DNA from: Thermoflexales bacterium
GTDB lineage: Bacteria > Chloroflexota > Anaerolineae > Fen-1058
NCBI GenBank assembly: GCA_041738395.1
Contig: JBGSPW010000025.1
Coordinates: 4,100 to 68,099, forward strand
Length of the DNA stretch: 64,000 nt
Direction of reading: 5' to 3'
A program made the translations under genes and the position numbers. Positions 4,964 through 25,736 of this stretch are shown in pieces; the stretch's first letter is position 1, and every line of letters starts with the position of its first letter. The notes beneath the pieces are model-generated. The model did no database searches, was not told the origin of the DNA, and saw nothing but the letters and a program-made list of their open reading frames with translations.

Positions 4964-5178
4964 ACCGAGGCAGACACGTTTTGCATGAACTGGCGAACCG
5001 GCAGTGAGGTGAGGTAGAGATGATACAAGCCGGCCCACAGCATCAGGTCGTCGTCATCGCCCAGTTCGCCGTCTTCGTAGCGGCGGTAGAATTCGATCGT
5101 GGAGTAGCCGTACTTGCGCTCGTATTCGCGCAAACGGTCCGACAGTTCGTCAAAGGTCAGGCGTTGTGATTTGACCAT
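4960..5178 (-). CDS. small partner protein of the DUF6516-like gene (putative antitoxin)
   Basis: 72-aa ORF with GGGAG-type SD, translationally coupled to 4568..4963. Shares the theme KYG(Y/M)..(E/Q)F..acidic run..W with 8451..8780. Confidence 0.45.
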   Translation of the reverse strand: MVKSQRLTFDELSDRLREYERKYGYSTIEFYRRYEDGELGDDDDLMLWAGLYHLYLTSLPVRQFMQNVSASV

Positions 5179-5254
5179 GGCTCTGCTCCCAATAGTCACT
5201 CGTTCTTAAGCAGATTATAGCACGGCCAGCGTCGTGTGCATGGAAGGGGAATCG

Positions 5255-8077: not shown

Positions 8078-8454
8078 CCGGCGAAGGTCGTCAAATAGTC
8101 GAGTACCAGCGGCAGATCGTGATCGGGATCGCCGTTGAGGGTGGAATCGCCGACAAGGCCGGTCGCCGCGTGAAAGTGATGAGGATGTGTTGTGAGGCCG
8201 GGGAAATGCTCTTTGTTGTCCCAGCGGAGTACGGGCTGATCGGCCTGAAACAACTGATAGGCGTAATCGACGTGGCGATCGTTATAATACAGGCGAACTT
8301 GCAGCACACCGCCGCGTGTCAGCTCGGCGCGGACCTTCAGTGCAAACTGTTGAGCGGAAAATTGCTGCGTTTCAAGGACATGCACGGCCTTGCATAATGG
8401 AGAGCCTTGCAGGGTGGTGATGACCAGATTGAGAACAGTAGCGGGCGTGGTCAT
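8074..8454 (-). CDS. DUF6516/TumE-like putative toxin, paralog of 4568..4963
   Basis: WDNKEHFPGLTTHPHHFH motif. 4-nt overlap with the upstream partner gene. Confidence 0.5.
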   Translation of the reverse strand: MTTPATVLNLVITTLQGSPLCKAVHVLETQQFSAQQFALKVRAELTRGGVLQVRLYYNDRHVDYAYQLFQADQPVLRWDNKEHFPGLTTHPHHFHAATGLVGDSTLNGDPDHDLPLVLDYLTTFAG

Positions 8455-8780
8455 GCGGCGACTTCGCCCTGCAGGCCGAGCCAGCTGGTCAGCATGTCAC
8501 GGGCGATGCGCCAGTCCTGGGCGTCTTCTTCTTCCAGCATGACGGCCTGATTGAGCGCGACATTCGGCGCAGCCGTCAGGGTGGCCGAGCGCGATTTGAG
8601 ATAGGCGTCGAACTGGTCGTAAGTCATGCCGTACTTGGTGCGCAGCCGGTCATCAACCGCGCGATAGCGCTCGATCTGGCGCAGCACGTAGTCTTGCGCC
8701 ATTTCCGCGACGGCTTTTTCGGTCGAGGGGAATAGCCCGCGCCGCACAAAGGGCTGGACGATATCGGTTACGGTGTGCAT
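8451..8780 (-). CDS. small partner protein (putative antitoxin), analog of 4960..5178
   Basis: 109-aa ORF coupled to 8074..8454. KYGMTYDQFDAY ... EEEDAQDW resembles the other partner protein. Confidence 0.45.
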   Translation of the reverse strand: MHTVTDIVQPFVRRGLFPSTEKAVAEMAQDYVLRQIERYRAVDDRLRTKYGMTYDQFDAYLKSRSATLTAAPNVALNQAVMLEEEDAQDWRIARDMLTSWLGLQGEVAA

Positions 8781-8875
8781 TTTGGCTCCCGTGATTGACG
8801 ATGTACGACTATCGTGATTATACCATTCGAGCAGACTGGCCTGATCATTTGATTATGGAGTTGTCGATTGACTAA

Positions 8876-8948
8876 CCATCGAACCACCTTCACGACCATT
8901 CGCACCGAGGGGGCGATATTGCCCGCCGATCTTCTTCAGCGCATCGCC
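8876..8948 (+). pseudogene. orphan copy of codons ~4-28 of the drmMI-like methyltransferase gene
   Basis: 73 nt match 19876..19948 with 4 mismatches, and the last ~45 nt are identical. Would encode HRTTFTTIRTEGAILPADLLQRIA, then diverges into stops. Confidence 0.85.
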
Positions 8949-8980
8949 TGCTACAGTGGTGTGAGCAGCATGCCGAGCGA

Positions 8981-9325
8981 GTGTATTGGGGAAACGGCGC
9001 TAAAGACGGGTCATTCAATGCCATGCTAGGCTGGGACAGTGAGCATGCCGTCAATGTCTTTGGCGTGTGGACCTACGGGACAGTTGAGGTCGGTTTTCAG
9101 TATGCCAAAGTGTACCCGCCTTTTGATCAGGAAGAGAAGCGGCGCGAGTGGCTGAAACGGCTGAAGGGTATAGACGACAAGGCACTTTCAGCAGATTCCC
9201 TCAATCGCCGTCCCAATTTTCCGTTAGCCGCCTTGGCTGATGAAAAGAAGTTCCAACAGTTTGTCGAAACAATGGAATGGGTGATCAAACAACTGCAAAC
9301 CGCGCGTGATGCGAATGCTGGATGA
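8981..9325 (+). CDS. hypothetical protein (GTG start; possibly a gene fragment)
   Basis: 114-aa ORF directly after the methyltransferase remnant. No motif recognised. Confidence 0.3.
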   Translation: MYWGNGAKDGSFNAMLGWDSEHAVNVFGVWTYGTVEVGFQYAKVYPPFDQEEKRREWLKRLKGIDDKALSADSLNRRPNFPLAALADEKKFQQFVETMEWVIKQLQTARDANAG

Positions 9326-9341
9326 ACTGAGGAGAACATTG

Positions 9342-12317
9342 ATGTCATCTCCGTCTTTTGACCAAGACAAAGAACTCGCCGAATTCTTCACCGACGTGGA
9401 GCACTTGCGCAACGCATTCAAGGATGCCGTCGCCGCACCGACGTTGGCGAAGCGGCTGTTTGTCATTCACGGCGTCGGGGGTGTAGGTAAGTCGTCGCTA
9501 CTGCGGATGTTTCGCCTGTACTGCAAGAGTGTGAATGTCCCCGTCGCGCTCGCCTCGGGCGATGAAGCCAAATCCGCCTTCGATATTCTGGCGCGCTGGA
9601 CAGCCGATCTGAAGGCAGACGGTGTAGCATGCCCATTATTCAGCAAGATGTACGACCATTATCGCGCTCTTCAAGCCAAGGTCGAGACTGAAGCGGGCAA
9701 GATTGCTGGGCAGGCAGTCAAAGGTGCGGCAAAGACCGTGATTGAGACAGCAGCAAGTACTGTTCCCGGCATTGGCCCATTGCTGGGAAAACTGGGCGGA
9801 ACAAGCGTCGAGGCACTGGCTGACATACTTTTGAGCCGCGGATTCAAGCGGCCAGATATCGACTTGCTTCTCGACCCGACCAAGAAGCTTACCGATGATT
9901 TCCTCGATGACATGAATAAAGCCGCAGACAAACAGCGTGTTGTGCTGATGCTTGATACATTTGAGCAAATGACCGCGCTTGAAGATTGGGCGCGTGATAT
10001 TGCGCAACGCTTGCCTTCCAATATGTTGTTCGTAATTGCAGGTCGCGCTTTGCCGAACTGGAGCCGAACATGGGATAGTTGGCAAAAGAACGCGTACGTT
10101 GAAGAACTGAAGCCGATGACCGAAGACGTGATGCGCGAGTTGATTCGGCGCTATTACGCGACGATGCGCGGCGGTGAACCGGACCCTATACAAGTTGAGG
10201 CGATTATCCATTTTGCACGCGGTTTACCGATGGTCGTGACAAGCGCGGTGCAGTTGTGGGTCAAGTATGGTGTTGAGGATTTTCAAGCGGTAAAGGTCGA
10301 AATTGTTGCCAATCTCGTGGACCGCTTGATGGAGGGTGTGCCAAGCACGTTGATACCTGCCCTCGAAGCAGCAGCGGTTGTGCGTTGGTTCGATCAACCA
10401 ATCTTGCGTGCGGTGATGCAGCAAGATGATTTGCGCGAAGCATACAATGAGTTGCGACGCTTCCCGTTTGTGCGCGTGCGCGTGGAAGGGCTGGCGCTGC
10501 ACGATGCCGTGCGTGAGATTATGGACGAGAACTTGCGCGTACAAGATTCCGAGCGTTATCGTGAACTGCATAAGCGCGCGGCGGTGTATTTTGAAAAACG
10601 GCTGGGGAACGCAGGGAGCGAAGAAACAAGCCGGCTAGAGATGGAACGTTTGTATCATCGGATCCATGCTGATGAAGTCACTGGCCTCACGTTGTTTCAG
10701 GAGATGGCGGAAAATCTGACGCGATATCGCCTTGTCAATCGCTTGCGGGCGGTAGTAGATGATGCATACACTTATACGCTGGAGTGCAACAAGAGTAAGC
10801 TGTGGCGAGACTACTATAACGCACGATCAGCAGAGCTTGAGCGACATCTCGAAAAAGCGGAGGCGATCTACGAATCTATCCTCAAGCCTGAACCTGGAGA
10901 AAAGCTTGAAGGCAGATTGGAAGGATACACACTATGCGATTTAGGTGGCTTGCTGACGAGGCCATCACGATTAAGTGGAGCGAGTGAACGAAAGAAAGCC
11001 CACGATGTGCTAGAGCGTGCCCAAAGATTAATTGCTCGTTCAGATCCTAAGTTACTCGTCGTGTTGGAAAACATGCAGGAGATCACCAAGATAGAAAGTA
11101 ATTGGCCACTGACAGATAAGCTGTTTGATGATCGCATTGAAATATGCCGGGAGAATCACCATGCATTTGAACTGATTTACGCGTTAATCGCTCGAATTTC
11201 TGTTTCCGAAAGGCGAGGCAATTGGAATGGCGTGCGTGAACAAGAATATGAAGCGAGTGTAGCACTTGAAGACATTGGGGCTCCGCTTTTCTTACAGTAT
11301 ACGCTCCTACACCGCAGTCTGTATTGGATGCGAACTGGCCGGTACCATGAAGCGGAAAACCGCAGACGTAAATGCCTTGAAATAGCAGGACAGTTGAATC
11401 TGGCGCGCGAGCCCGCTTTAAGCCTTAATTGGCTTGGTTATTTACAAGGAATCCAAGACAAACTTGAATCGGCAGCCACATTGCAGGAATGCAAAGAAAA
11501 GCTAGATGACGCACAAAGTGACTGGGTCACGACCGCATTTAACTGTAACAAAGGATATGTGAATCTGCGGCAAGGCCATTATTTCGATGCAGAGGAATCT
11601 TTGAGGCAAGGACTAGCAGGTAAGCAGAAGCTTGACCCAAAGGCGATCCCATTGATTCAGATATGGCTGGGAGAACTATGTGCATGCCAAGGGAAATGGA
11701 CAGAAGCTAACTCGCAGTATGAAGAAGCTCTCTGGCAGCGAATATCAGATAGCTATGATTTGCGCAGCACTGCCTTGACAGGTCTCATCTGCGTCAAGCA
11801 CGCACAAGGCGACTATACTGCTATCCCGCCACTACTCGCCGAAGCTGAGCAACTCGCCCAGCAGTACGAATATAACGATCATCTCGCCTCGTTGCGATTG
11901 ACGCAAGGGCATATCGCGTGGGAGGGCAATGCGCCGACGTGGGATAACGGTTTTGAGGCGACGCTGCACTTCTACCAACACTCGCTGATCTACGCTCTGC
12001 GCTACAACCGCTTTTTGCTGGACGAGGTGCTGTCAGGGCGACCGCAAGGATCACCCCTACGGCCGATTATTCCGCACTGTCTAGAACGCGGCGATGAGGG
12101 TCGGCAAATGCTGATCGCCTTGCGTGAATGGTGGCAGGCAGGCCTCAACGACATCGGCACACCGCGCCCGGATACGATTTCACCGATTCCTGAAGGCATT
12201 CCGTTGTTGGAAGCGGAACGTGTCGCGCGCGGCCGCGAGCCGGGTGATGGCTCGCCGCAAAAGAGTGTGATCGAGCAGATTGAGGCGGCGTTGGTGAAGT
12301 TAGGCGAGATTGCGTAA
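9342..12317 (+). CDS. P-loop STAND-like NTPase with C-terminal TPR array (paralog A1)
   Basis: Walker A VIHGVGGVGKSSLLRM, Walker B VVLMLDTFEQM, Gly-rich hydrophobic insert between them, long TPR-like helical C-terminus. GAGGAG SD precedes the ATG at 9342, and the N-terminus aligns with the paralog start MSS(P/S)SFDQDKELAEFF. Confidence 0.75.
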   Translation: MSSPSFDQDKELAEFFTDVEHLRNAFKDAVAAPTLAKRLFVIHGVGGVGKSSLLRMFRLYCKSVNVPVALASGDEAKSAFDILARWTADLKADGVACPLFSKMYDHYRALQAKVETEAGKIAGQAVKGAAKTVIETAASTVPGIGPLLGKLGGTSVEALADILLSRGFKRPDIDLLLDPTKKLTDDFLDDMNKAADKQRVVLMLDTFEQMTALEDWARDIAQRLPSNMLFVIAGRALPNWSRTWDSWQKNAYVEELKPMTEDVMRELIRRYYATMRGGEPDPIQVEAIIHFARGLPMVVTSAVQLWVKYGVEDFQAVKVEIVANLVDRLMEGVPSTLIPALEAAAVVRWFDQPILRAVMQQDDLREAYNELRRFPFVRVRVEGLALHDAVREIMDENLRVQDSERYRELHKRAAVYFEKRLGNAGSEETSRLEMERLYHRIHADEVTGLTLFQEMAENLTRYRLVNRLRAVVDDAYTYTLECNKSKLWRDYYNARSAELERHLEKAEAIYESILKPEPGEKLEGRLEGYTLCDLGGLLTRPSRLSGASERKKAHDVLERAQRLIARSDPKLLVVLENMQEITKIESNWPLTDKLFDDRIEICRENHHAFELIYALIARISVSERRGNWNGVREQEYEASVALEDIGAPLFLQYTLLHRSLYWMRTGRYHEAENRRRKCLEIAGQLNLAREPALSLNWLGYLQGIQDKLESAATLQECKEKLDDAQSDWVTTAFNCNKGYVNLRQGHYFDAEESLRQGLAGKQKLDPKAIPLIQIWLGELCACQGKWTEANSQYEEALWQRISDSYDLRSTALTGLICVKHAQGDYTAIPPLLAEAEQLAQQYEYNDHLASLRLTQGHIAWEGNAPTWDNGFEATLHFYQHSLIYALRYNRFLLDEVLSGRPQGSPLRPIIPHCLERGDEGRQMLIALREWWQAGLNDIGTPRPDTISPIPEGIPLLEAERVARGREPGDGSPQKSVIEQIEAALVKLGEIA

Positions 12318-12401
12318 CTTCAGTGTGATTCTGTATCCACTCACTACACGCTCTTCAACGCAATATACCGAACAAGCCGCTCAAAACTGAGGGAAACCTG
12401 A

Positions 12402-15400
12402 ATGTCATCTTCGTCCTTTGACCAAGACAAAGAACTGGCCGAATTCTTTACCGACGTTGAGCACTTGCGCGAAGCGTTCAAGAATGCCGTCGCCGCACCA
12501 ACGCTGACGAAGCGACTGTTTGTCATTCACGGTGTTGGCGGGGTGGGCAAGTCGTCGCTGTTGCGGATGTTTCGCCTGCACTGCAGGAGCGTGAATGTCC
12601 CCGTCGCGCTCGCCTCGGGCGATGAAGCGAAGTCTGCCTTCGACATTCTGGCGCGCTGGACGGCCGATTTGAAGGTGGACGGCGTGTCGTTTTCGGCGTT
12701 CAGCAAGACGTTCGCGCATTACCGCGAAATTCAAGCCAAAGTAGATGCACAGGCGAAGAAGGCGGGTGGACGCGCGGCGGATATTGGCGGCAAGGCCGCC
12801 TCGAAAACGGCGGAAGCGGCCGGCGGTGCACTGGCAGGAGCGGCCATCGGCTCGATGATTCCTGGCGTCGGTACAGCAATTGGTGGTGCCCTGGGCGGTG
12901 TGCTGGGTGGGATGGGTGCGGAGGCATTGACGGACTGGCTGCGCGGATTTCTCAAACAACCGGACATCGATTTGCTTCTTGACCCGGCGAAGAAACTCAC
13001 CGACGATTTCCTAAACGACATTACCAAAGTCGCGGATAAGCGGCGCAGCGTGCTGATGCTCGACACGTTTGAACAGATGACGGCGCTTGAAGATTGGACG
13101 CGTGACGTTGCACAACGCTTGCATCCCAATGTGTTGTTCGTGATTGCAGGACGTGCCCTGCCGAACTGGAGCCGGGCGTGGGATAGTTGGCAAAAGCGCG
13201 CGTACATTGAAGAACTCAAGCCGATGACCGAAGACGTGATGCGCGAGTTGATTCAACGCTACTACGCGACGATGCGCGGCGGTGAACCAGCCCCCGCACA
13301 GGTTGAGGCGATTATCCGTTTTGCCCGCGGCTTGCCGATGGTCGTGACGAGCGCGGTACAGTTGTGGGTCAAGTATGGGGTCGAAGATTTTCAATCGGTT
13401 AAAACCGAAATCGTCGCCAATCTGGTGGATCGCATGACGGAAGGCGTTCCAAGTGCGTTGCTTCCCGCGCTCGAAGCGGCAGCCATTGTGCGCTGGTTTG
13501 ATCAACCAATTTTGCGGGCGGTATTGCAGCAAGACGATGTGCGCGATGCGTATAACGAGTTGCGACGCTTCCCGTTTGTACGCGTGCGCGTGGAAGGGTT
13601 GGCGTTGCACGACGCCGTGCGTGAGATTATGGATGAGAACCTGTGCGCACAAGATTCCGAACGCCACCGAGAAATGCACGAGCGTGCCGCGACCTATTTT
13701 GAAAAGCGGCTGGAAAAGGCAACAGGCGAAGAGGCCGAGCGACTTGGATTGGAACGATTGTATCATCGCGTCCGCGCAGATGAAGTGACAGGTATCAAAT
13801 TGTTTCAGGAGACGGCAGAGGAATTGGTGCGATCTCGTCTGATCAGTCGATTGCGCGCGTTGTTGAATAATGTTCGAATCGATTTGCTTGAACAAGAAAA
13901 TAGTAAACTATGGGTTGAATACTACAGTGCTCGTTTGCTACACTTGGAAGCCCAACGCGCTGATGCAGAAAAAGCATACCAATCCATCTACGAAAATAAT
14001 AACGCTGAAACTCGCTTGCGTGCGTATGCACTCTGCGATTGGGGAAGCATTCTAGAGAGAACAGCTTGGTTATCGAAACCCGGCGGCACAGAGAAGGCAA
14101 CGAACGTCTTGGAAAGAGCATTGACCATCTTATCCAATGAGGATCCCAAGACGGTTTCAGCTCTTCTAAGTCTGTGTGGAGTATATACGAGACTAGGGGA
14201 CTACGAACACGCGATTTATTATGGCAAAAAGGCAATTGAGTTTTCAGAGATACGTCAAGATAGCTATGCGTTGATATTAGCCCTGGAATCACTGCGATGG
14301 ATATATGTACTTAGCGGGGACTGGCAAAGCATGTTAGCAAATCAAGCCGCTGGAGAAAAATTGCTCACCAGTCATGGAAAAAGTCCCTACCTACTTGCCA
14401 GAGTAATTGGATCCTTCACAATTGGCTGTTCATGGGCAGGAAACTACTCTGAAAGTGAACGGAGATCTATAATCGCTCTTGGGGCATTTGAGGAGCTAAG
14501 TGCTCCCGCTACACTTAGCTATCTAAGAGAGCTAGCATATGCAGAAGGAATGCAGGATAAGTATGAAAAGGCTGACGAAAATTTCGGCAAAGCTCTTCAG
14601 GTTGCCAATCTTCTTGGCTACCAAAGAGAAAAAGTAACCCTGAGTTTTTGGGGCAGAATCCTCATCAGACAAGGAGCAGTGGAAAAAGCCAGAAACTTGC
14701 TAATTGAGAGTTACAACTCGGGACAGGAGTTGAAAGACCCTGGCGTGATGATAGAATCTCTGAATTGGCTTGCAGAAGTAGCTGAGATCGCTCATGATTG
14801 GCTGGATGCAGAAACGCAATACAATCGGGCACTTGAATTGCGAAGGACTCGCCGCTACTACTTCGAATGCGGTGCCCTCACAGGCTTCGTTCGCGTCAAG
14901 CACGCGCAAGATGACTTTGCCGCTATCCCACCACTCCTCGCGGAAGCAGAGCAACTGGCCCAGCAGTATGAGTACAACGACCATCTCGCGTCATTGCGGC
15001 TCACACAAGGGCATATCGCTTGGGAAGGCAAGGCGCCGACCTGGGACAACGGCTTCGAGGCGGCGCTGCATCTCTATCAACACGCGCTGATCTATGCCCT
15101 GCGCTACAACCGCTTTTTGCTGGATGAGGTGCTGTCGGGGCGATCGCAAGGAACACCACTGCGACCGATTATTCCGCATTGTCTAAAACGCGGCGAAGAA
15201 GGACGACAAATGCTGATCGCGTTGCGCGATTGGTGGCAGGCAGGCGTCAACGACATCGGCACGCCGCGCCCGGACACGATTTCGCCGATTCCCGAAGGCA
15301 TTCCGTTGCTGGAGGCAGAACACATCGCACGCGAACGTGAGCCGGGAGATGGTTCGCCGCAAAAGAGTGTGATTGAGCAGATTGAAGTAGCGTTGGGTTA

Positions 15401-15413
15401 TTCGGTAATCTGA
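12402..15413 (+). CDS. P-loop STAND-like NTPase with C-terminal TPR array (paralog A2)
   Basis: Same Walker A/B as A1. Glycine-zipper-like insert GSMIPGVGTAIGGALGGVLGGMG. N-terminal ~470 aa and C-terminal ~190 aa are highly similar to A1, while the centre is divergent. Confidence 0.75.
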   Translation: MSSSSFDQDKELAEFFTDVEHLREAFKNAVAAPTLTKRLFVIHGVGGVGKSSLLRMFRLHCRSVNVPVALASGDEAKSAFDILARWTADLKVDGVSFSAFSKTFAHYREIQAKVDAQAKKAGGRAADIGGKAASKTAEAAGGALAGAAIGSMIPGVGTAIGGALGGVLGGMGAEALTDWLRGFLKQPDIDLLLDPAKKLTDDFLNDITKVADKRRSVLMLDTFEQMTALEDWTRDVAQRLHPNVLFVIAGRALPNWSRAWDSWQKRAYIEELKPMTEDVMRELIQRYYATMRGGEPAPAQVEAIIRFARGLPMVVTSAVQLWVKYGVEDFQSVKTEIVANLVDRMTEGVPSALLPALEAAAIVRWFDQPILRAVLQQDDVRDAYNELRRFPFVRVRVEGLALHDAVREIMDENLCAQDSERHREMHERAATYFEKRLEKATGEEAERLGLERLYHRVRADEVTGIKLFQETAEELVRSRLISRLRALLNNVRIDLLEQENSKLWVEYYSARLLHLEAQRADAEKAYQSIYENNNAETRLRAYALCDWGSILERTAWLSKPGGTEKATNVLERALTILSNEDPKTVSALLSLCGVYTRLGDYEHAIYYGKKAIEFSEIRQDSYALILALESLRWIYVLSGDWQSMLANQAAGEKLLTSHGKSPYLLARVIGSFTIGCSWAGNYSESERRSIIALGAFEELSAPATLSYLRELAYAEGMQDKYEKADENFGKALQVANLLGYQREKVTLSFWGRILIRQGAVEKARNLLIESYNSGQELKDPGVMIESLNWLAEVAEIAHDWLDAETQYNRALELRRTRRYYFECGALTGFVRVKHAQDDFAAIPPLLAEAEQLAQQYEYNDHLASLRLTQGHIAWEGKAPTWDNGFEAALHLYQHALIYALRYNRFLLDEVLSGRSQGTPLRPIIPHCLKRGEEGRQMLIALRDWWQAGVNDIGTPRPDTISPIPEGIPLLEAEHIAREREPGDGSPQKSVIEQIEVALGYSVI

Positions 15414-15471
15414 ACTGTGGTTGCCGTTCGATACGCGGACTTTTGCAAGTACCTTCCTACGAGACAGATAG

Positions 15472-18400
15472 ATGACTACTTTATTTGACGCCGTCATCCC
15501 AAACCTTGTTGCCGAAGCTCTGATCCGTGCGGGCGATCATCTGTTTGGTTCTGCTATTCGTAAAGCGCTTGGTCGCTCAGAAGAGATTCGCTTGAAAGCG
15601 AGCATTGGAAGAGCACTGCATGAACTTGCCTCGGATTATGCACAACTGGAGCGCGCCGAAGGCCCTGCCTATATTCTTGATTCAAGGTTCTTTGAGGACA
15701 AAGCTGCGCGCACTGAACTTCTCAAGGTCTACAGACCTGATTTTATTTCGCGAGATGTGCTCGTCGCTCGCTATATTGAATTATACGGCTATGAGGACTT
15801 GGATAAGTTTCAGCGCAATTTGTCAGATTTCCTCCGAAATCTACATGAGATCAATTGGGAATTGTTGCCTCCGGGTGATCAATTTCAAACATCTTTCTTG
15901 ACGCGAGAAATACGTCAGCTGAGCGAACGAGTCGATAGCCTAATCTCAAATAATCAGACTGCCCAGCCTGCTTCTCCAACCCCATCCGCTGAGACCGCAA
16001 AGCCATCCGACATTTACACATTCTCCCGAAAAAGGGAAGTGCCAGATGCCATACAAGACGCTTTGACCACACTCACGTTGGCGGTACAAGAATCTTGGGC
16101 ACAGCCTGTTCCCCTTTATCGCGAGCTCGTTGAAGAAGAAACACAGCGCGAAATTGAAAAAGCGCGGAGTTTCCTGAAGCAGGGTGATATCAAAAGAGGA
16201 CATAGAATACTCTCTCATATCGAACAATCGAGGTCTAAGGTTCTTGATGATCTGCCTGCTGCAATTCGTTTCGATCTATTCCGACTTCTCGGCGCAGTGT
16301 ATCTGGTGCAGGGCGACATAGAGACGGCTGAATCCTATTTAAGGCGATCTGAAGTGGTATCGCCTGATGATTCGCGCTTAAACACTAACTGGGCCCAATT
16401 GCATCTCTTGAAACGTGAGTTTTTAGAGGCTGAGCGACTTGGTATAGAGGCTGAGCGAAGTGGCACTAATCGAGCTCAATCTATCGAAGTTGTGATTCAG
16501 GCAATGCTAGCCCAAAAGAAAGCGGAGGCTGCTCTAGCGTGGCTGGGGGACATAGATGTTGCCGAAGATCTTGAACATATCTATGTGTGTTGGGGACAAG
16601 TCTATTTTGCACTCGGTGATTTAGATGGAGCGCAGGAATATTTAGATAAGTCACTTGAACTGAAGCGCAATTATGCACCTGCGGATGCATTTATGGGCGA
16701 CGTTAAACTCGCCAAGTTGTACGAGCGTATCCGCAATTTCGCAGTACTCGAACAGGCTGACGATCTTCTTGACCAGGAATTACTGCAATCAATTGTGGCG
16801 CACTACACCAGCGCAATTAAGTCTTATGAGCATGCAGGGCTACTCGTACAAACAGAGGTAATTCACGTCAATCTTGCAAATGCGTTAAATCTCTTACGCA
16901 GGCCTAAAGAAGCCCTCGTACACATCAAAAAAGGACTTCGAAATTCCCCTCCCGTGCCTGAACCATGGCTGATAGCAGCAAGAGTCGCTCGCGATAGCGG
17001 TCAGATTGAATTGGCGGAGCACTGGTGTACTGAAGCCGCAAAACGCGCGCCAGATATCCCAGAGCCTTACTTTCAGCTTGCCGAAATTCGCTTAAGCCAG
17101 TCCAATACACAAGGCGCGCTAAGTGCTCTCAATCAAGCAGAAGCGATGTGCAAATCAGATCGTCATAAGACTGAGTTGGCGCTATTTCGTGCTGATGTAT
17201 ATAGCCAATGTGGAGACAGTGCGGGAATCCGCCAGGCCCTCGACTCAGTTCCTGAGGCGGCCCGTGATTCCTCTGATGTGATGTTAGCAGAGGCCGGGTG
17301 GTCCCGTCGCGCAGGCGATACTGATGGAGCTCAAACCATTCTTCTTAAGGCTGCGGAGAAATTTCCTGAGAATGTGAGTGTAGCAGCGTCAGCTGGGCGC
17401 TTTTTGTTATACGACAAGCAAAATCCAAAGGACGCAGTTCCCTTCCTACAGAAATGGGTAAAGTCTGCCCCTAGTAAAGTTAGCTATTTCCATCTAGCCC
17501 AATCTTTCTTTGGTTTAGGACATTATCAAGAAGCGCTGCGAGTCATTAATGAAGCTCGCTTGGCAAAGTGTGCAGATGATTACTTGCGGCGAATTGAAGG
17601 CGGCGCACTGTTAGGGCGGAAACGTTATCGTGAAGCTGTTCAAGTACTTGAGACAGTACCAATTGATAAAAGAGACTTTTCAAGCTGGTGCAATCTTGGG
17701 GCGGCCTGGCGATTGTTAGGTGATCGCGATCGAGCAATCGACGCGTATGAGAATGCATCTCGTATCAATGAAAAGCAACCGGAACTGTTTTTGACTTTGG
17801 CGGAGTTGTACCTACAACTTGAAGACAATGAGAATGCATATCACTATGCCCAAGCGGCATTGAAACTGGGGGAAGACGATCCTGACATTCACATGGGTTT
17901 CTTCCATACTGTTTTTGCCGCACAGCGCGAACGTGAGGCACTCCAAGTTCTGATGGAAATACCGAAACGATTTCCAGAATACACGGGACTGTATGCAGCG
18001 GGGTTAGACGAAGTCCGCCGCGTCTTTTCCGAAGGACAAATTCGCTCTCAACAGGCACTCAGCGAATATTTGGCAGGCCGTCTGCCGTTTACGATACTCT
18101 CGCTTTTGCTGAACTTGGCTACTGTTGAGCTATGGTTCGGATTTAGGCACGATGGGTTGAAGCAGCTATACGCTTCCGGCACACTTGAAGAACAGAGATC
18201 CGAAAGGAGTTTACTATCCAGTAGTGAGGTCGTCGTTGATTACACTGCATTATTGACGTCGCACGCACTAAACCTGCTTGAAGTATTACCATCGATCTTT
18301 GACAAGATATATATCCCTTCCACTGTGAGTTGGGCGATCATGTCAGATCGGGCACGGCTAATCCACACCCAACGTGAGCGCCTGAAAAGGCTGAAGGAAT

Positions 18401-19863
18401 TAAAGGAGTTCATTGGGAAATATCCACGCGTGACAATTCACTCTGATTGGGTAACCCCACCCGAACAATTCTTCGCAAATGATGGCGATCGCGCTGAAGC
18501 ACTCGACATGCAAGATATGATCTTGGTGAAGGAGTTCAATGCTGTATACGTGTGCGACAACGAGGCGAACTTCGCAGCGTTTGCCCGCTTAGTAGAGAGC
18601 CCAAGCGTTGGCAGTTGGGATATTTTGGAAGTACTAATTCGTGACGAGCTGCTAACTGTCGAGGAACAAGCCAAGGCCGCGCGTTATATGGCAGAGAATC
18701 GCTTAGTGCGGATTTCCCCTGAATATTTCCTCTCTCATGAGGATGAACTGGTACTGAGCTGGCATAGTCTGACCTCCTTATTCGAATGCGAGCCAAGTTT
18801 GCTGCGTGTGATTGCTGCACATTTTCGCCGAGTACACATCAGTCCAAGCACATGGGCCTTATTAGACAAAGACGCATTGCGCAGCGAAGTCATTGAACTG
18901 GCCATACCGGCACTAACTGAAATTGAAAACGCCCTGAAAACTAACGAGAAGTATGAAATTGTCTCTTCCGAAGAATTTGCCGAGAGGAACCTTGATTCCG
19001 AAGCGCAATTCAATCTCGCAAATCAAGTTCTCGACGCTATTGGCGTAGCTAAAGAGAAAGGCGTACCGCTTTGGACAGACGACTTGGTAGCTCGACGATT
19101 GGCTGCTAACGACAGTGCGGGACCAGCAACTATCTGTTCACGCGCAGTCCTCGACAAGACCCAGATTGAGCAAATATTAACGCCGCAGGCTTACTGTGAA
19201 AAAGTCTTTTTCTTGCTTTCAAATCAATACGAGTTTACTAGTATCAACTCTCTATTAGTGTATTGGCTGCTCGAACAGCATGGATTTCAAGACAATTCGG
19301 AAATCCAGCTCGTCTTGACAAAGTTAAACGAAACGGCAAAGCAAATCGTAGCTAATACATCAGCGGGTGATAGTCTCAAAGAATTTGGGCTCCATTTGAA
19401 CGAAGGCCTACATTCTTATTGGTCGGTTTTATCTACGGCGATTGCTTTGCTCTGGCTGATACCCACAGAAGTAAAGCCCAACATACGCAATCAATGGGCT
19501 AAAATCCTACTAGAGCAAAGTATGGAAGTGCAAAGTATTTTCCCATCAATGGATATCGTGATGATGCTAATCATTACTTCATATATGGACATTGTCTCGC
19601 GTCACAATCTTGATGCAGCACGTAAATATTACTCATTTGCTTGGACCTATTGCTGGCTTCGTGGTCTAGAGGAAGAATTCTATGACGGCCTGCTTACGAT
19701 GGTCCGTGCGTTTGAACAAGTAGATGTACCTGATGATTATCGAAGATCGTTTATTGCAGAGTTGCTACATTCGGTGAAAGGAAGGATTGCACCTGCGAAG
19801 ATCGCGCGATATATTATCCAGACCCACCCAGACTGGCTAACTACATCACCCAAAGATTCCTAA
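15472..19863 (+). CDS. 1463-aa TPR-repeat protein with unknown N-terminal domain and possible PIN-like C-terminal region
   Basis: Multiple TPR-like repeats (LGAVYLVQGDIETAESYLRRS etc.). C-terminal half has VVVDYTALL, YVCDNEA and PLWTDDLVARRLA, reminiscent of PIN acidic motifs. The stop TAA lies 1 nt before the drmMI ATG. Confidence 0.6.
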   Translation: MTTLFDAVIPNLVAEALIRAGDHLFGSAIRKALGRSEEIRLKASIGRALHELASDYAQLERAEGPAYILDSRFFEDKAARTELLKVYRPDFISRDVLVARYIELYGYEDLDKFQRNLSDFLRNLHEINWELLPPGDQFQTSFLTREIRQLSERVDSLISNNQTAQPASPTPSAETAKPSDIYTFSRKREVPDAIQDALTTLTLAVQESWAQPVPLYRELVEEETQREIEKARSFLKQGDIKRGHRILSHIEQSRSKVLDDLPAAIRFDLFRLLGAVYLVQGDIETAESYLRRSEVVSPDDSRLNTNWAQLHLLKREFLEAERLGIEAERSGTNRAQSIEVVIQAMLAQKKAEAALAWLGDIDVAEDLEHIYVCWGQVYFALGDLDGAQEYLDKSLELKRNYAPADAFMGDVKLAKLYERIRNFAVLEQADDLLDQELLQSIVAHYTSAIKSYEHAGLLVQTEVIHVNLANALNLLRRPKEALVHIKKGLRNSPPVPEPWLIAARVARDSGQIELAEHWCTEAAKRAPDIPEPYFQLAEIRLSQSNTQGALSALNQAEAMCKSDRHKTELALFRADVYSQCGDSAGIRQALDSVPEAARDSSDVMLAEAGWSRRAGDTDGAQTILLKAAEKFPENVSVAASAGRFLLYDKQNPKDAVPFLQKWVKSAPSKVSYFHLAQSFFGLGHYQEALRVINEARLAKCADDYLRRIEGGALLGRKRYREAVQVLETVPIDKRDFSSWCNLGAAWRLLGDRDRAIDAYENASRINEKQPELFLTLAELYLQLEDNENAYHYAQAALKLGEDDPDIHMGFFHTVFAAQREREALQVLMEIPKRFPEYTGLYAAGLDEVRRVFSEGQIRSQQALSEYLAGRLPFTILSLLLNLATVELWFGFRHDGLKQLYASGTLEEQRSERSLLSSSEVVVDYTALLTSHALNLLEVLPSIFDKIYIPSTVSWAIMSDRARLIHTQRERLKRLKELKEFIGKYPRVTIHSDWVTPPEQFFANDGDRAEALDMQDMILVKEFNAVYVCDNEANFAAFARLVESPSVGSWDILEVLIRDELLTVEEQAKAARYMAENRLVRISPEYFLSHEDELVLSWHSLTSLFECEPSLLRVIAAHFRRVHISPSTWALLDKDALRSEVIELAIPALTEIENALKTNEKYEIVSSEEFAERNLDSEAQFNLANQVLDAIGVAKEKGVPLWTDDLVARRLAANDSAGPATICSRAVLDKTQIEQILTPQAYCEKVFFLLSNQYEFTSINSLLVYWLLEQHGFQDNSEIQLVLTKLNETAKQIVANTSAGDSLKEFGLHLNEGLHSYWSVLSTAIALLWLIPTEVKPNIRNQWAKILLEQSMEVQSIFPSMDIVMMLIITSYMDIVSRHNLDAARKYYSFAWTYCWLRGLEEEFYDGLLTMVRAFEQVDVPDDYRRSFIAELLHSVKGRIAPAKIARYIIQTHPDWLTTSPKDS

Positions 19864-19864
19864 T

Positions 19865-22800
19865 ATGCCCACCCACCATCGATCCACCTTCACCACCATC
19901 CGTACCGAGGGGGCGATATTGCCCGCCGATCTTCTTCAGCGCATCGCCGAGGGGGATGCGACGCTGGGCGGGTTAACGCCGGAGGCGTATCACCTGGCGG
20001 CGGGCGAGAAGATTAACGAAGCTATCAACCGCGCGTGGAATCGTTGTCTGGGCGCGTGGGCGACGTTCCAATCGGCGGCGGCAAAGTTGCCGGAGAATGA
20101 TCTGGGTACGTCGATCACGCGCGAGCGCTGGCTGCTGCCACTGTTTCAGGAGTTGGGTTATGGCCGCCTCGTGCCTGCCAAGGCGATCGAGATTGCTGAA
20201 GGGGCGGGGTCACCCCGCCCGTACCCGATTTCGCACGGCTGGCAGAACACGCCGATCCATCTGGTGGGGCTGCAGGTCGATCTGGATCGGCGGACGCCGG
20301 GCGTGGCCGGGGCGTCGCGCAGCAGTCCGCATAGTCTGGTGCAGGAACTGCTGAATCGATCGAGCGAGCACCAATGGGGGATCGTGTCGAACGGGCTGCG
20401 GCTGCGCGTGCTGCGCGATAACGCGCGGTTGACGCGGCAGGCTTACGTGGAGTTCGATCTGCAGGCGATGATGGACGGGGAGGTGTACGCGGATTTCGCG
20501 CTGTTGTGGTTGGTGGGGCATCAATCGAGAGTGGAAGTTGGCCCCCCCTCTGTCCCCCCCGTCTTCGACAGGGGGGAGGAACGAGGACGCATCGACAGGC
20601 GAGAAGAATGCTGGCTTGAAAAGTGGATGAAGGCGGCGCAGGATCAGGGGACGCGGGCGCTCGATCAACTGCGCGGCGGTGTGGAGGCGGCGATTACGGC
20701 GCTGGGGACAGGCTTTATCGCGCCGACGAGCAATCGGGCGTTGAGGGAGAAGTTGCAATCGGGGTCATTGAGCGCGCAGGAGTTTTATCGGCAGTTGCAG
20801 CGCATGGTGTATCGATTGATCTTTTTGTTCACGGCCGAGGAGCGTGGCTTGCTGCTCGATCCCAAGGCCGCTGCGAGCGCGCAGGATCGCTATACGCGGT
20901 ATTACTCGATCGGGCGGCTGCGACGCCTGGCGGAACGCCGCAGCGGGACGCGACATGTCGATCTGTATCACGGCCTGCGGCTGGTGATGGATCATCTGGG
21001 CGGCGATGGGTGTCCTGAATTGGCGCTGCCGGCGCTGGGCAGTGATTTGTTCAACAACGAGTTCATCCGCGATCTGGAGGGTTGCGAGATCGCCAATCGG
21101 GCGGTGTTGGACGCGATCCGCGCGCTGGCTTTTATCCAGAGCAAGGGCGTGCGGCGGTTGATCGATTACAAGAACCTCGGCTCGCAGGAATGGGGCAGCG
21201 TGTATACGTCGCTGCTGGAACTGCATCCGATGTTGAATTTGGGCGCGGGCACGTTCGAGTTGCAGTCGGCGGCGGGCAATGAACGCAAGACGACGGGCTC
21301 GTATTACACCGAACCGGGGCTGGTGAATGAATTGGTCGAGAGCGCGCTGGAGCCGGTGATCGCCGATCGGTTGAGCCGCGCCCGTACGCGCGAAGAAAAA
21401 GAACGCGCGCTGTTGTCGATCAGGGTGCTCGATTCCGCGAGCGGCAGCGGTCACATGCTGCTGGCGGCCGGGCATCGACTGGCGCGCCATCTGGCGATCA
21501 TCCGATCGGGCGACGAGGAACCGTCGCCGGAAGCAATGCGTAAAGCGCTGCGGGATGTGATCGGCCACTGCCTGTACGGCGTGGACAGCAATCCGATGGC
21601 GGTGGAGTTGTGCAAGGTGAACCTGTGGATGGAGGCGCTGGAGCCGGGCAAGCCGCTGTCGTTTCTCGATCATCACATCAAGTGCGGCAACAGTTTGATC
21701 GGCGCGACGCCGGCGCTGCTGGCCGGGGGCATCCCCGATGAGGCCTTCACGCCGATCGCGGGCGACGACAAGGCGGTGTGCAGCGCGTTCAAGAAGAAGA
21801 ACAAGCAGGAACGCTCGGGCCAGCGCAGTCTGTTCGACGCGGCGCTGCAACCGTGGGAGCGCGTGGGCGACATCGCGGCGAGCCTGCTGCAGGTGGACGA
21901 ACTGGCCGACGATACGATCGAGGGCGTGCGCCGTAAGCAGGCGCGGTATGCGGAGGTGGTGCGATCGAGCGGCTACGAATACGGCCGCCTGTGGGCCGAT
22001 AGTTGGTGCGCGGCTTTTGTGTGGAAGAAGACGAAAGAGTTTCCATACCCGATTACGGAGGAGGTGTTCCGCCGCATCGAGCACAACCCGTTCGACCTCG
22101 CGCCGTGGATGCGGGAAGAGATCGAGCGACTGGCGGGGCAGTATCAGTTCTTTCATTGGCATTTGGAGTTTCCAGAAATATTTGGCCCCCTTCCCGGCCT
22201 TTCCCCGTCGGAAAAAGCGCCGACAGGGGAAGGAGCAGGCGGGTTTGATGTGTTGTTGAGCAATCCGCCGTGGGAAAAAATCAAACTTCAAGAAGAAGAG
22301 TTCTTCGCGGCGCGTGATCCGCGGATTGCGACTGCACCGAATACGGCCGCACGCCAGAGACTGATCGCTGTGTTATCAAAGACAAATCCTGCACTAGCGC
22401 TTGAACTATCCGAAGCGAAACGTGCTACCGAAGGCGTAAGCAAGTTCGTTCGATTAAGCGAGCGCTACCCATTGACAGGCATTGGCGATGTAAATACATA
22501 TGCGCTGTTTGCAGAGCTTGATCGCAGTTTGATTGCATCGAATGGCCGCACTGGCATCATCTTGCCAACAGGCATTGTCACGGATGACACTACCAAAGAT
22601 TTCTTTGGTGACGTGATGGCGAATCAAGCCTTGGTAAAGTTGATTGGCTTTGAAAACGAGTCATTCATCTTTCCAAATGTTCATCATTCATTTAAGTTCT
22701 GTGCTGTCACAATAACCGGTCAACAATCAAGGCTCGAACGTGCAGACTTCGTTTTCTTTTGCCGTCACTTCGAGAATGTCAAACAAGCGGAGCGACATTT

Positions 22801-23899
22801 TGAATTGTCGCGTGAAGACCTTGTTCTGCTGAATCCCAATACTCGCACATGCCCAATTTTTCGGACTCGCGTCGACTCTGAATTGACCAAGAAGATATAT
22901 CGTCGTGTGCCGGTATTGGTGAATGACCATTCAGATGCTAATCCTTGGAGCCTAACACTCCTGCGATTATTCGACATGTCGAACGACAGTGGTTTATTCG
23001 CTTCAGAGTCACAAAATGGCTATGTTCCGCTTTATGAAGCAAAGCTTATTCACCAGTTTGATCACCGATATGCTACCTATGAAGGTGCGCTGCAGGCGAA
23101 TTTGAACTCGGGCATACTGCCACAGGCATCCTACAAGCAGAAGCAAGATGCCAATTTCTCAGCCTTGCCTCGATACTGGGTACCAATTAATGAAGTTGAA
23201 ACGAGACTAAAGACGTGGCGGCATTCTTGGTTGCTAGGATTTCGTCGAATAACAAGCAGCGTGGTTGAACACACCATGATAGCCTGCCTGTTTCCGAGAG
23301 TGGGAGCAAGCGATGTCTTGCCAGTGTGTCTTTCTGATGGCGTGGAGATTACACTGCTATCTTGCTTGCTGGCAAACTTTAACTCAGTCTGTTTCGACTA
23401 TGTGGCACGCCAAAAAGTTGGTGGCACCCATATGGATTTCCATTACCTAAAGCAACTCCCTGCCCTGCCGCCGTCGGCCTACACGGCGGCGGACATCGAC
23501 TACATCGCGCCGCGGGTGCTGGAGTTGGTCTACACCGCGTGGGATTTGAAGCCGTTCGCGGAGGACATGGGCTATCACGGCGAACCGTTCAAGTGGGATA
23601 CGGATCGCCGCGCGCAATTGCGGGCGGAACTCGACGCGTATTATGCGCGGCTGTACGGGTTAAGTCGGGATGAACTGCGGTACGTGCTCGATCCACAGGA
23701 GGTGTATGGTTCGGACTTTCCGGGGGAGACGTTCCGCGTGCTGAAGGAGAAGGAGATGAAAGCGTACGGGGAGTTTCGGACGAGGAGACTCGTGCTGGAG
23801 AAGTGGGATGTAGGTGAACACCTTCAATTGGTTTTATTAGCAACGGATGGCAAAGATAGTAAAGGCATGACTGAAGATTCGCCATTGCGTTCAATTTAG
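19865..23899 (+). CDS. drmMI: large Eco57I/type IIG-like N6-adenine DNA methyltransferase, DISARM DrmMI-like
   Basis: Motif I VLDSASGSGHML, YGVDSNPMAVELCKVNLW, motif IV LLSNPPWEKIK. 1344 aa. Lies next to helicase/DUF1998 and SNF2 genes. Confidence 0.7.
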   Translation: MPTHHRSTFTTIRTEGAILPADLLQRIAEGDATLGGLTPEAYHLAAGEKINEAINRAWNRCLGAWATFQSAAAKLPENDLGTSITRERWLLPLFQELGYGRLVPAKAIEIAEGAGSPRPYPISHGWQNTPIHLVGLQVDLDRRTPGVAGASRSSPHSLVQELLNRSSEHQWGIVSNGLRLRVLRDNARLTRQAYVEFDLQAMMDGEVYADFALLWLVGHQSRVEVGPPSVPPVFDRGEERGRIDRREECWLEKWMKAAQDQGTRALDQLRGGVEAAITALGTGFIAPTSNRALREKLQSGSLSAQEFYRQLQRMVYRLIFLFTAEERGLLLDPKAAASAQDRYTRYYSIGRLRRLAERRSGTRHVDLYHGLRLVMDHLGGDGCPELALPALGSDLFNNEFIRDLEGCEIANRAVLDAIRALAFIQSKGVRRLIDYKNLGSQEWGSVYTSLLELHPMLNLGAGTFELQSAAGNERKTTGSYYTEPGLVNELVESALEPVIADRLSRARTREEKERALLSIRVLDSASGSGHMLLAAGHRLARHLAIIRSGDEEPSPEAMRKALRDVIGHCLYGVDSNPMAVELCKVNLWMEALEPGKPLSFLDHHIKCGNSLIGATPALLAGGIPDEAFTPIAGDDKAVCSAFKKKNKQERSGQRSLFDAALQPWERVGDIAASLLQVDELADDTIEGVRRKQARYAEVVRSSGYEYGRLWADSWCAAFVWKKTKEFPYPITEEVFRRIEHNPFDLAPWMREEIERLAGQYQFFHWHLEFPEIFGPLPGLSPSEKAPTGEGAGGFDVLLSNPPWEKIKLQEEEFFAARDPRIATAPNTAARQRLIAVLSKTNPALALELSEAKRATEGVSKFVRLSERYPLTGIGDVNTYALFAELDRSLIASNGRTGIILPTGIVTDDTTKDFFGDVMANQALVKLIGFENESFIFPNVHHSFKFCAVTITGQQSRLERADFVFFCRHFENVKQAERHFELSREDLVLLNPNTRTCPIFRTRVDSELTKKIYRRVPVLVNDHSDANPWSLTLLRLFDMSNDSGLFASESQNGYVPLYEAKLIHQFDHRYATYEGALQANLNSGILPQASYKQKQDANFSALPRYWVPINEVETRLKTWRHSWLLGFRRITSSVVEHTMIACLFPRVGASDVLPVCLSDGVEITLLSCLLANFNSVCFDYVARQKVGGTHMDFHYLKQLPALPPSAYTAADIDYIAPRVLELVYTAWDLKPFAEDMGYHGEPFKWDTDRRAQLRAELDAYYARLYGLSRDELRYVLDPQEVYGSDFPGETFRVLKEKEMKAYGEFRTRRLVLEKWDVGEHLQLVLLATDGKDSKGMTEDSPLRSI

Positions 23900-25584: not shown

Positions 25585-25736
25585 ACGTGCTCGATCCGCA
25601 GGAGGTGTATGGCTCGGACTTTCCGGGGGAGACGTTCCGCGTGCTGACGAAGTCCCCATCTTTTGGGGGAAGGAGAAGGAGTTGAAGGCGTACGGGGAGT
25701 TTCGGACGAGGAGATTGGTGTTGGAGAAGTGGGATG
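25585..25736 (+). pseudogene. orphan copy 2 of the drmMI 3' end, interrupted by a 22-nt hairpin insert
   Basis: Matches 23686..23810 (VLDPQEVYGSDFPGETFRVL / KE(M/L)KAYGEFRTRRLVLEKWD) with extra cgaagtccccatcttttggggg at 25648..25669. Confidence 0.85.

Follow-up and report, generated by a model that had tools for sequence, protein, structure and literature searches.

A stranded methyltransferase gene start marks the entry of a STAND/TPR-PIN block into an ARMADA type I-like defence operon

How does an 11-kb block of unrelated genes come to lie inside a defence operon, and why does a second copy of the beginning of the next operon gene lie at the far end of the block? The question is raised by a 64,000-nucleotide stretch of Thermoflexales bacterium DNA (positions 4100-68099 of contig C220 of the source genome; hereafter the window). 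In the window, a YprA-family helicase gene, an SNF2 helicase gene and a gene for a PglX-like N6-adenine methyltransferase follow one another on the same strand, and two genes for STAND NTPases and one for a TPR protein with a PIN domain (TPR-PIN) stand between the SNF2 and methyltransferase genes. A first-pass annotation, made from the letters alone, had noticed that the 5' end of the methyltransferase gene is repeated on the upstream side of these genes, and had proposed that the STAND/TPR module entered the operon by recombination. The features on which the argument turns are as follows.

8857..8870, plus strand: retained translation signals (GGAG, 7 nucleotides [nt], TTG), read off the sequence; the TTG stands at the ATG position of the same-genus genome G001.
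8868..8948, plus strand: orphan methyltransferase head of 27 codons (MTNHRTTFTTIRTEGAILPADLLQRIA), with the repeat core at 8875-8948, recognized by sequence comparison.
8948..8949, no strand: junction, precise to ~3 nt, where the methyltransferase head runs, out of frame, into internal sequence of another gene.
8949..9325, plus strand: 3' remnant of ~125 codons, starting LLQWCEQHAERVYWGNG, from a PD-(D/E)XK-like family of ~375-392 amino acids (aa).
8949..19864, plus strand: the whole inserted block, whose GC content of 0.506 is lower than that of the flanks (0.60) and of the 5' part of the methyltransferase gene (0.632); the similarity to the same-genus genome G002 breaks at ~19830-19870.
9306..12317, plus strand: cargo gene for STAND NTPase 1 (AAA_16 plus TPR), 1003 aa, a tandem paralogue of STAND NTPase 2.
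12402..15413, plus strand: cargo gene for STAND NTPase 2, 1003 aa.
15472..19863, plus strand: cargo gene for a TPR protein with a PIN-TPR-GreABC domain, 1463 aa; its TAA stop (19861-19863) ends one base before the methyltransferase ATG.
19865..23899, plus strand: the live N6-adenine methyltransferase (ArmB/PglX/DrmMI-like), 1344 aa, with the second repeat copy at 19875-19948.

Positions 8875-8948 and 19875-19948 are direct repeats of 74 nt that match at 70 of 74 positions (4 mismatches, 94.6% identity). The four mismatches are confined to the first 29 nt, so that the remaining 45 nt agree throughout; with uniformly placed mismatches, such clustering has a probability of (29/74)^4, or ~0.02. 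The calculated expectation for a 74-mer pair with at most 4 mismatches is ~1e-27 in 64 kb, and a search of the whole genome (7.18 Mb, 269 contigs) returned these two copies of the repeat and no others, which together rule out a chance repeat. In the methyltransferase open reading frame (ORF), the downstream copy takes up codons 4-28, apart from the first base of codon 4. Past the upstream copy, its frame continues through 27 unrelated codons to a TAG (9027-9029); ahead of the copy stand GGAG (8857-8860), 7 nt and a TTG start (8868) that is in frame with it. This TTG is homologous in position to the ATG of the G001 orthologue (MTNHRTTF versus MPTHRTTF; MTNHRTTFTTIRTEG... in the orphan and MPTHRTTFTTIRTEG... 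in G001). The upstream copy is therefore a former methyltransferase start, stranded with its own translation signals, and it survives as a 53-codon ORF. The first-pass annotation had placed the second copy at codons 4-28 of the methyltransferase and had seen the first run into stops, with four mismatches and ~45 identical nt at the end, all of which we found as described; only the length needed correction, to 74 nt from 73, since the repeat starts one base earlier. It had also taken the spacing of the two starts, exactly 11,000 bp, for a probable coincidence. The spacing has no mechanistic meaning that we could see, and it looks like a coincidence to us as well.

Was the 5' end of the gene simply duplicated when the block entered, which was one of the two routes proposed earlier? 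The identity of 94.6% between the two copies compares with 93% between the window and G002 (a manual count on aligned sequences). The copies thus differ roughly as much as orthologues of separate species within the genus do, which disfavours target duplication of the 5' end. When polarised with G001 and G002, the mismatches comprise three synonymous changes and one nonsynonymous change, too few sites to tell allelic divergence from decay.

The left boundary of the block points in the same direction. Directly after the orphan head lies a 114-aa ORF (8981-9325), for which an exact-protein look-up returned no record. Its frame is open back to 8876 and holds no ATG, GTG or TTG before the GTG at 8981. 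When the frame from 8951 was compared with 1.84 billion representative proteins, 1044 matches were obtained, the closest of which were 375-392 aa long and 42-45% identical. Residues ~256-390 of these relatives align to the window frame from the first residue of the query (the frame begins at 8948-8951), and the conserved motif LLxW....rV.WG.G...GSF begins at 8948-8953. The N-terminal two-thirds of this PD-(D/E)XK nuclease-like family was found neither in the window nor in the whole genome. The ORF is thus the last third (~125 codons) of a ~380-aa gene that has lost its own start. At 8948/8949 the methyltransferase head (its 27th codon, which is codon 28 of the live gene) meets the interior of this gene (~residue 260), out of frame. 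The truncation of both partners points to an illegitimate joint and speaks against an att site, a target-site duplication or the end of a cassette with native ends. The boundary had been described earlier as a clean cargo boundary; it is indeed precise, and it cuts through a cargo gene, leaving the block without a native left end. A full-length member of the ~380-aa family sits at the same SNF2-methyltransferase junction in an Anaerolineaceae metagenome-assembled genome (MAG; locus L106, 8817-9965), for which reason the donor was plausibly another allele of the same locus.

That the STAND/TPR-PIN block was inserted between the SNF2 gene and the methyltransferase gene, as had been proposed, is borne out by its foreign GC content (50.6% against 60%), with a sharp switch at its right end, by the empty sites of relatives (see below) and by STAND homologues that are unlinked to such operons. 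The two STAND genes and the TPR-PIN gene make up the module as first described, with the exception of ORF 8981-9325, which had been included in the module and is the truncated nuclease-like gene. Among metagenome contigs, homologues of STAND NTPase 1 were present at 64 loci (29-62% identity), none adjoining ARMADA genes, and hence the STAND gene is free-standing cargo rather than a core component. The TPR-PIN protein matched only itself in 400 genomes of the class, in a search of poor sensitivity that scored two candidates per genome, and the exact 39-mer across the left joint had 0 matches in the metagenome contigs. Between 8949 and 19864 we found no recombinase or transposase, no inverted repeats bounding the block, and no remnant of an SNF2 tail or a methyltransferase tail, which would have indicated a stacked second locus. 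The cargo genes are co-oriented with the operon, tightly packed and coupled stop to start with the methyltransferase gene, so they are probably expressed together with the core system. A promoter and terminator scan of 7900-20100 gave nothing above shuffled expectation.

We then asked how this junction looks in relatives, by aligning methyltransferase N-termini of relatives and fetching 79 loci from many phyla (80 were kept of >575 matched); the SNF2 gene was visible in 71. The distance from the SNF2 stop to the methyltransferase start was at most 40 bp in 37/71 loci, 41-200 bp in 8/71, 201-1000 bp in 15/71 and more than 1 kb in 11/71. The 34/71 loci with gaps above 40 bp reached a maximum of 6.3 kb, and the gap in the window is 11.8 kb. 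A paralogous locus of the same genome, on contig C30, is empty (51 bp), and so are the loci of G024 and G036. The search for empty loci that had been recommended thus found them to be the norm, and a STAND-bearing ancestral state with no empty site anywhere is not what the relatives display. The occupants of the junction are co-oriented, diverse and mostly defence-type genes: STAND NTPases (L061, L080), an ABC-3C system (L115), a DUF3800 protein (L069), a GTPase (L075), a Schlafen-AlbA_2 protein (L095), a DUF4011 helicase-restriction endonuclease together with a PDDEXK_4 protein (G011), a transglutaminase-like protein (L070) and, at some loci, second methyltransferases. With about half of the 71 loci occupied, the SNF2-methyltransferase junction of ARMADA type I is a recurrent cargo hotspot within the operon.

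The same-genus genomes resolve this turnover more finely. In G001, the SNF2 gene and the 5' part of the methyltransferase gene are 88% and 89% identical in nucleotides to those of the window, and the junction holds a single STAND gene (80%) and no TPR-PIN gene, toxin pair or orphan head. Since G001 has a STAND gene at the site without the orphan, the orphan records one particular recombination and not the first arrival of a STAND gene. In G002 (PMCF01000107, a same-genus MAG), the TPR-PIN gene is only 50-60% identical, and identity reaches 91-95% within ~50 nt of the methyltransferase start. The right junction, in which the TPR-PIN stop overlaps the methyltransferase start, recurs in this independent assembly. 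Within the genus, therefore, the flanks are conserved and the cargo turns over. As a separate observation, the SNF2, STAND and methyltransferase genes of G001 (L039/L040, a 20-contig assembly) are full of stops and frameshifts, with 10 TGA and 1 TAG in the methyltransferase 5' part; these genes are either pseudogenes or carry long-read indel errors.

Is the orphan of the window an isolated accident? Every locus was searched with its own methyltransferase head and its own SNF2 tail. In L061 (DAIUCC010000001.1, an Anaerolineales MAG), the order is SNF2 gene, 1003-aa STAND gene, orphan head, copy of the SNF2 tail, NACHT-TPR gene and live methyltransferase gene. Here a 66-codon chimeric ORF (6691-6885) consists of the first 40 methyltransferase codons, ATG included, and, in the same frame, of the final 26 SNF2 codons, which are 94.6% identical in nucleotides to the resident tail. 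It fills the space between the stop of the STAND gene upstream and a point 7 nt short of the following ATG. Such a fusion of head to tail would be the expected trace of a non-homologous crossover between two alleles that carry different cargo, and the donor piece at L061 would then begin within an SNF2 tail. L095 has a decayed orphan head of ~35 codons between cargo genes and, like L061, belongs to the Chloroflexota, and L051 has an orphan SNF2 tail. The orphan heads end at different codons (28 in the window, ~35 in L095 and 40 in L061), each abutting unrelated sequence, and most occupied loci have no orphan at all. Because each orphan sits at the old methyltransferase start, just after older cargo, new cargo would have been added on the methyltransferase side. 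Four cyanobacterial loci (L049, L050, L060 and L070) have two full-length methyltransferases in tandem, with an identity of 59% in L050 and 67% over ~790 residues in L060; the second copy in L070 is split by a DDE transposase. At only 59% identity, the L050 copies are stacked alleles and not duplicates made in situ. Head-containing methyltransferase fragments of intermediate length were absent from the 79 loci, in which heads occur in complete genes or in pieces of at most 40 codons.

Which event left the orphan in the window? The reading that we prefer, and to which we give about an even chance, is homology-anchored illegitimate recombination ("displacement") with DNA from another version of the same locus. 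The incoming DNA would have carried the 3' part of the ~380-aa nuclease-like gene, both STAND genes and the TPR-PIN gene, followed by the beginning of a methyltransferase gene. Its right side would have been anchored by homologous recombination within the methyltransferase gene, and on its left side it would have been joined illegitimately to the resident methyltransferase gene just past the 27th codon of the resident head (codon 28 of the live gene). The outcome would be a resident start and ribosome-binding site stranded as a dead ORF and ~11 kb of cargo inside the operon on the same strand. Of the two routes put forward earlier, this one corresponds to exchange with a homologous locus carrying the cassette, which fits better than duplication of the 5' end.

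Several observations weigh against this reading. We found no donor of the window cargo among the genomes of the class or in metagenome contigs, and either of the two heads may be the one derived from the donor. The first 1.5 kb of the live methyltransferase gene is at ordinary genus-level identity to G001 and G002 (89-92%), and so the donor must have been a close relative, or else the live head is the resident one. A simple join does not predict a repeat with four mismatches in its first 29 nt and 45 identical nt after them; this pattern may call for later gene conversion or a crossover in that segment. The ends of the orphans, at ~28, 35 and 40 of ~1340 codons, are too clustered for random joints ((45/1340)^3, ~4e-5), which suggests selection against longer truncated enzymes, a second trimming step or a mechanistic bias. 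The complete tandem methyltransferases of the cyanobacterial relatives make a two-step route plausible.

In that two-step route, which we hold to be a tentative alternative, a second complete methyltransferase gene and its cargo were acquired first, and a later deletion took everything from codon 29 of the first methyltransferase gene through the first ~260 codons of the 380-aa gene. The intermediate would possibly have had the order SNF2 gene, toxin pair, methyltransferase 1, intervening DNA, 380-aa gene, STAND gene, STAND gene, TPR-PIN gene and methyltransferase 2. The four tandem loci, with the stacked alleles of L050 among them, are what its first step would produce; the split of heads into complete genes and pieces of at most 40 codons fits deletion with selection against partial enzymes, and a deletion would truncate both partners at the joint just as was found. 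However, the route uses two events where one suffices, the cargo lacks any remnant of a methyltransferase or SNF2 tail, no relative has cargo between two complete methyltransferases, and the fusion of head to SNF2 tail in L061 would need a whole second system stacked in tandem. A Campbell-type gain, in which circular or repeat-flanked cargo that already carries a short head integrates by homologous recombination within the 45-74-nt head and can pop out again, seems improbable to us. The repeats would in that case be the very substrate of recombination, and the cargo a cassette that does without a recombinase. The 45 identical nt at the 3' end of the repeat, the shared frame of the two heads, by which excision restores an intact gene, and the methyltransferase-tail remnants described below, which share a private insertion, occur at both loci of the genome and in G001 and travel with cassettes, would all suit it. 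It accounts, however, for the spread of a junction between head and truncated gene and not for its origin, no second instance of this cargo with heads was found in the genomes and metagenome contigs searched, and a homology of 45-74 nt is near the lower limit for RecA-dependent exchange.

The other explanations fare worse. That the orphan head is retained as a functional element, either as a leader with ribosome-binding site and start that drives or couples translation of the cargo or as a small regulatory peptide, is very unlikely. The spacing GGAG-N7-TTG is kept in the orphan, the 66-codon ORF of L061 bridges in frame from the upstream stop to 7 nt before the next ATG, and heads are always short and always include a start; yet in the window the orphan ORF and the remnant gene are read in different frames, the former stopping 48 nt past the only candidate start of the latter, the L095 orphan is decayed, most occupied loci do without an orphan, and the promoter and terminator scan was uninformative. 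An assembly artefact, that is, a metagenomic mis-join through the shared 45-mer with the 11,000-bp spacing as its symptom, we consider more unlikely still, even though the genome is a 269-contig MAG with 6.6% estimated contamination and the exact junction was not found in metagenome contigs. A mis-join through the 45-mer would lead the orphan into the body of the methyltransferase gene and not into a remnant gene, and the joint of head and remnant needs a real molecule. Furthermore, a 45-nt exact repeat is shorter than the k-mers of most assemblers, the right junction recurs in G002 and equivalent orphans in the independent assemblies of L061 and L095, the genome has just two head copies and no contig with an alternative allele, and the spacing of 11,000 (11,000 mod 3 = 2) carries no meaning. 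Site-specific integration or transposition, with the repeats as att sites or a target-site duplication, deserves the faintest credence. A tyrosine recombinase gene does lie ~1.5 kb upstream of the operon (C220:718-1962) and another at the end of the C30 island, both typed only to the generic Phage_integrase family; but the upstream integrase stands ~7 kb to the left, outside the repeats, and the insert itself has no recombinase or transposase, a target-site duplication would not look like 74 nt with 95% identity, a broken gene forms the left end of the insert, and orphans end variably (28, ~35, 40) against unrelated sequence or are missing from most occupied loci. Two more specific forms were rejected. 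A transposon target-site duplication would be short (~14 bp or less) and identical and would come with inverted repeats and a transposase, and none of these features was seen. An integron cassette array would have an IntI integrase, an attI site and attC sites around each cassette; here the only repeats seen at cargo boundaries are copies of methyltransferase ends, and the single inverted repeat in 30 kb lies elsewhere (attC folding was not searched).

The displacement reading that we prefer has precedents. Effector-immunity arrays of the Vibrio cholerae type VI secretion system (T6SS) have been attributed to homology-facilitated illegitimate recombination, and the same process has been put forward for the orphan arrays of the rhs, cdiA and T6SS effector loci (Kirchberger et al. 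2017, PMC5361080). The window agrees with these arrays in that a conserved gene serves as the homologous anchor, incoming DNA, in the window plausibly that of another allele, brings new genes, the old gene end survives as an orphan, growth occurs on the side of the anchor gene, and orphans retain enough homology for later recombination. The orphan is a copy of the adjacent anchor gene end in the same orientation, and the non-homologous joint on its far side cuts coding sequence. The window differs in that the 5' start of an enzyme gene (~27-40 codons plus ribosome-binding site) is displaced, not a variable 3' toxin tip, in that whole unrelated defence genes are gained rather than alternative ends of the same protein, and in that the ARMADA methyltransferase gene has a 3' array as well. 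For rhs, "C-terminal displacement" was reportedly described by Jackson et al. in 2009, and orphan cdiA-CT/cdiI modules are said to have been treated by Poole et al. in 2011. Homology-facilitated illegitimate recombination in natural transformation is reportedly the subject of work by de Vries and Wackernagel (2002), Prudhomme et al. (2002) and Meier and Wackernagel (2003), all cited by Kirchberger et al., and the process is said to occur in Escherichia coli conjugation too. The experimental events likewise combine one homologous anchor with one non-homologous joint, trap foreign DNA by the anchor and cut genes at their joints. In contrast to the window, they usually cost the recipient some DNA beyond the anchor; the joint of the window falls 28 codons into the anchor gene and would leave a short duplication. 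Integrative elements such as e14 in icd and the islands in tRNA genes rebuild the end of their target gene, their repeats being att sites of the element's own integrase, with native ends. They resemble the window in that a direct repeat of a gene end flanks the insert and one copy is a dead fragment, and they differ in that the window insert has no integrase and its left end is a broken gene.

Can the cargo be lost again? With respect to the repeat, the two heads share one frame. Recombination within the repeat would thus take out exactly 11,000 bp, after which an intact methyltransferase gene would be read from the orphan's GGAG-TTG start. By RecA-type recombination over the 45 identical nt, the cargo could then be lost and the core system left unharmed.

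The 3' end of the methyltransferase gene has a history of its own. Its last ~130 nt (23682-23810) recur after each of two downstream genes, at 25585-25736 and 27949-28120; these genes encode a PQQ beta-propeller protein and an NB-ARC/TPR STAND protein. Copies of the tail were also found on C30 (61455-61556, 64048-64230, 64528-64756 and 72319-72478), after an NB-ARC gene in G001 (one) and in L061 (four). Three copies, two in the window and one on C30, share a private insertion of 21-68 nt after GTGCTGA, in which a small hairpin covaries (CCCCA/TGGGG versus CCCTC/GAGGG). The tail remnants on C30 are 88-94% identical in amino acids to the window methyltransferase tail, whereas the C30 methyltransferase is only 39% identical overall; on this account, tail remnants seem to travel with cassettes. 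Both ends of the methyltransferase gene may thus serve as landing sites. A wider reading, that the first ~30-40 and last ~45-60 codons of the gene are recombinase-free landing pads on which defence genes are stacked, swapped and shed by host recombination, with the cargo travelling with a surrogate gene end and the stranded head offering an "undo" through the 45-74-nt repeats, strikes us as rather unlikely as it stands. Apart from this, the C30 locus (L042) has an unusual pairing as cargo between two methyltransferase-tail remnants: a NACHT-HEAT-TPR STAND gene (7861-12276) followed by a gene for a 1000-aa SecA-like ATPase fused to an M23 peptidase domain (12225-15227).

To which defence family does the host operon belong? 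The remaining features of the operon are as follows.

3..4577, plus strand: 3' part of an ArmC-like YprA-family helicase gene whose complete ORF (C220:3478-8676) specifies 1732 aa; the domains are DEAD/Helicase_C, MZB/DUF1998 and, at the C-terminus, the Vsr-like DUF559.
5234..8077, plus strand: SNF2 helicase (ArmA/BrxHII/DrmD-like), the left conserved flank of the hotspot.
8074..8780, minus strand: antisense TumE-like toxin gene (8074-8454) and small partner gene (8451-8780), outside the repeats.

The first-pass annotation had used the DISARM names drmD and drmMI, and these turned out to be loose. The SNF2 protein scored 315.2 bits against the NCBIfam DrmD model (NF038317), whose cut-off is 610, and so failed the DrmD equivalog criterion. 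A single 1732-aa protein, with a Vsr-like domain at its end, unites the helicase and DUF1998 parts (DrmA/DrmB), and no PLD domain (DrmC) was found in any ORF examined; on these three counts, canonical DISARM class 1 was rejected. The 1524-aa window part of the helicase matched Helicase_C and MZB (PF09369; 43.9 bits, cut-off 24.2) in Pfam, with DUF559 borderline (E = 4.7e-4; 20.4 bits, cut-off 20.6); the full-length ORF was scanned with NCBIfam only, and the PADLOC matches of the helicase were DruE/DpdJ/DrmA. As published, ARMADA type I consists of a YprA homologue, a BrxHII-like helicase and a PglX-like methylase, in that order, with a Vsr-type nuclease at the helicase C-terminus (bioRxiv 10.1101/2025.09.15.676423). 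ARMADA stands for DISARM-related Antiviral Defense Array, and ARMADA II has been tested in E. coli (PMC13463889). The helicase, SNF2 and methyltransferase genes of the window, all on the plus strand, follow this order, as do L033, L036 and L041, which lack cargo. In both genes and order (YprA-family helicase with DUF1998 and Vsr-type nuclease, BrxHII-like SNF2 protein and PglX-like adenine methyltransferase), the core system fits ARMADA type I better than DISARM. The window differs in its cargo: among the passages of the ARMADA paper returned by a term search, there was no mention of accessory genes or hotspots within the operon, and the only passages on "cargo" concerned whole systems carried on mobile elements (bioRxiv 10.1101/2025.09.15.676423). 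A wider literature search for defence systems that are embedded in operons yielded nothing of use.

The small TumE-type pair occupies the same junction separately from the block. It had no match at this place in the 79 relatives, and the idea that it commonly resides there was discarded. A second antisense TumE-like gene (4568-5038, minus strand) lies between the helicase and SNF2 genes and is 43% identical to 8074-8454 over the HxHH motif region, and both junctions within the operon thus carry antisense toxin-type modules. The methyltransferase gene itself is a mosaic, with a GC content of 0.63 up to ~22200, 0.48 over 22201-23460 and 0.62 in the conserved tail. Its G002 orthologue is 91-95% identical only up to ~21345 and unrelated beyond, which suggests that the target-recognition part has been exchanged. 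Each of the two ARMADA islands of the genome has a tyrosine recombinase gene at its outer edge, one on the minus strand ~1.5 kb upstream of the helicase gene (C220:718-1962) and one at L042 17969-19048. The right half of the window encodes ParB, RadC, a DUF6094 methyltransferase and DUF6908, and resembles an integrative mobile element, and so the operon as a whole may be carried by an element.

What does the scar in the window mean for systems of this kind? The scar is real and recurrent, if fairly ordinary taken alone: its kind is already known, and here it is met at the 5' end of a gene that belongs to a defence operon. It gives a base-precise breakpoint for the entry of an 11-kb STAND/TPR-PIN block into a defence operon. 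If cargo is shed by recombination between the repeats, deletion alleles that use the orphan start would be expected at low frequency in read data, and if the landing-pad reading were to hold, cassettes would be traded in an integron-like economy that needs no integrase, works at both ends of a single gene and extends across phyla. The main value of the scar is that it exposes a widespread cargo hotspot inside ARMADA type I operons, at loci from many phyla. The junction could be mined for new defence genes, and annotation would do well to treat such systems as a core plus embedded cargo. That defence islands may grow by recombination between alleles of a resident system, without dedicated mobile-element machinery, is a directly testable idea.

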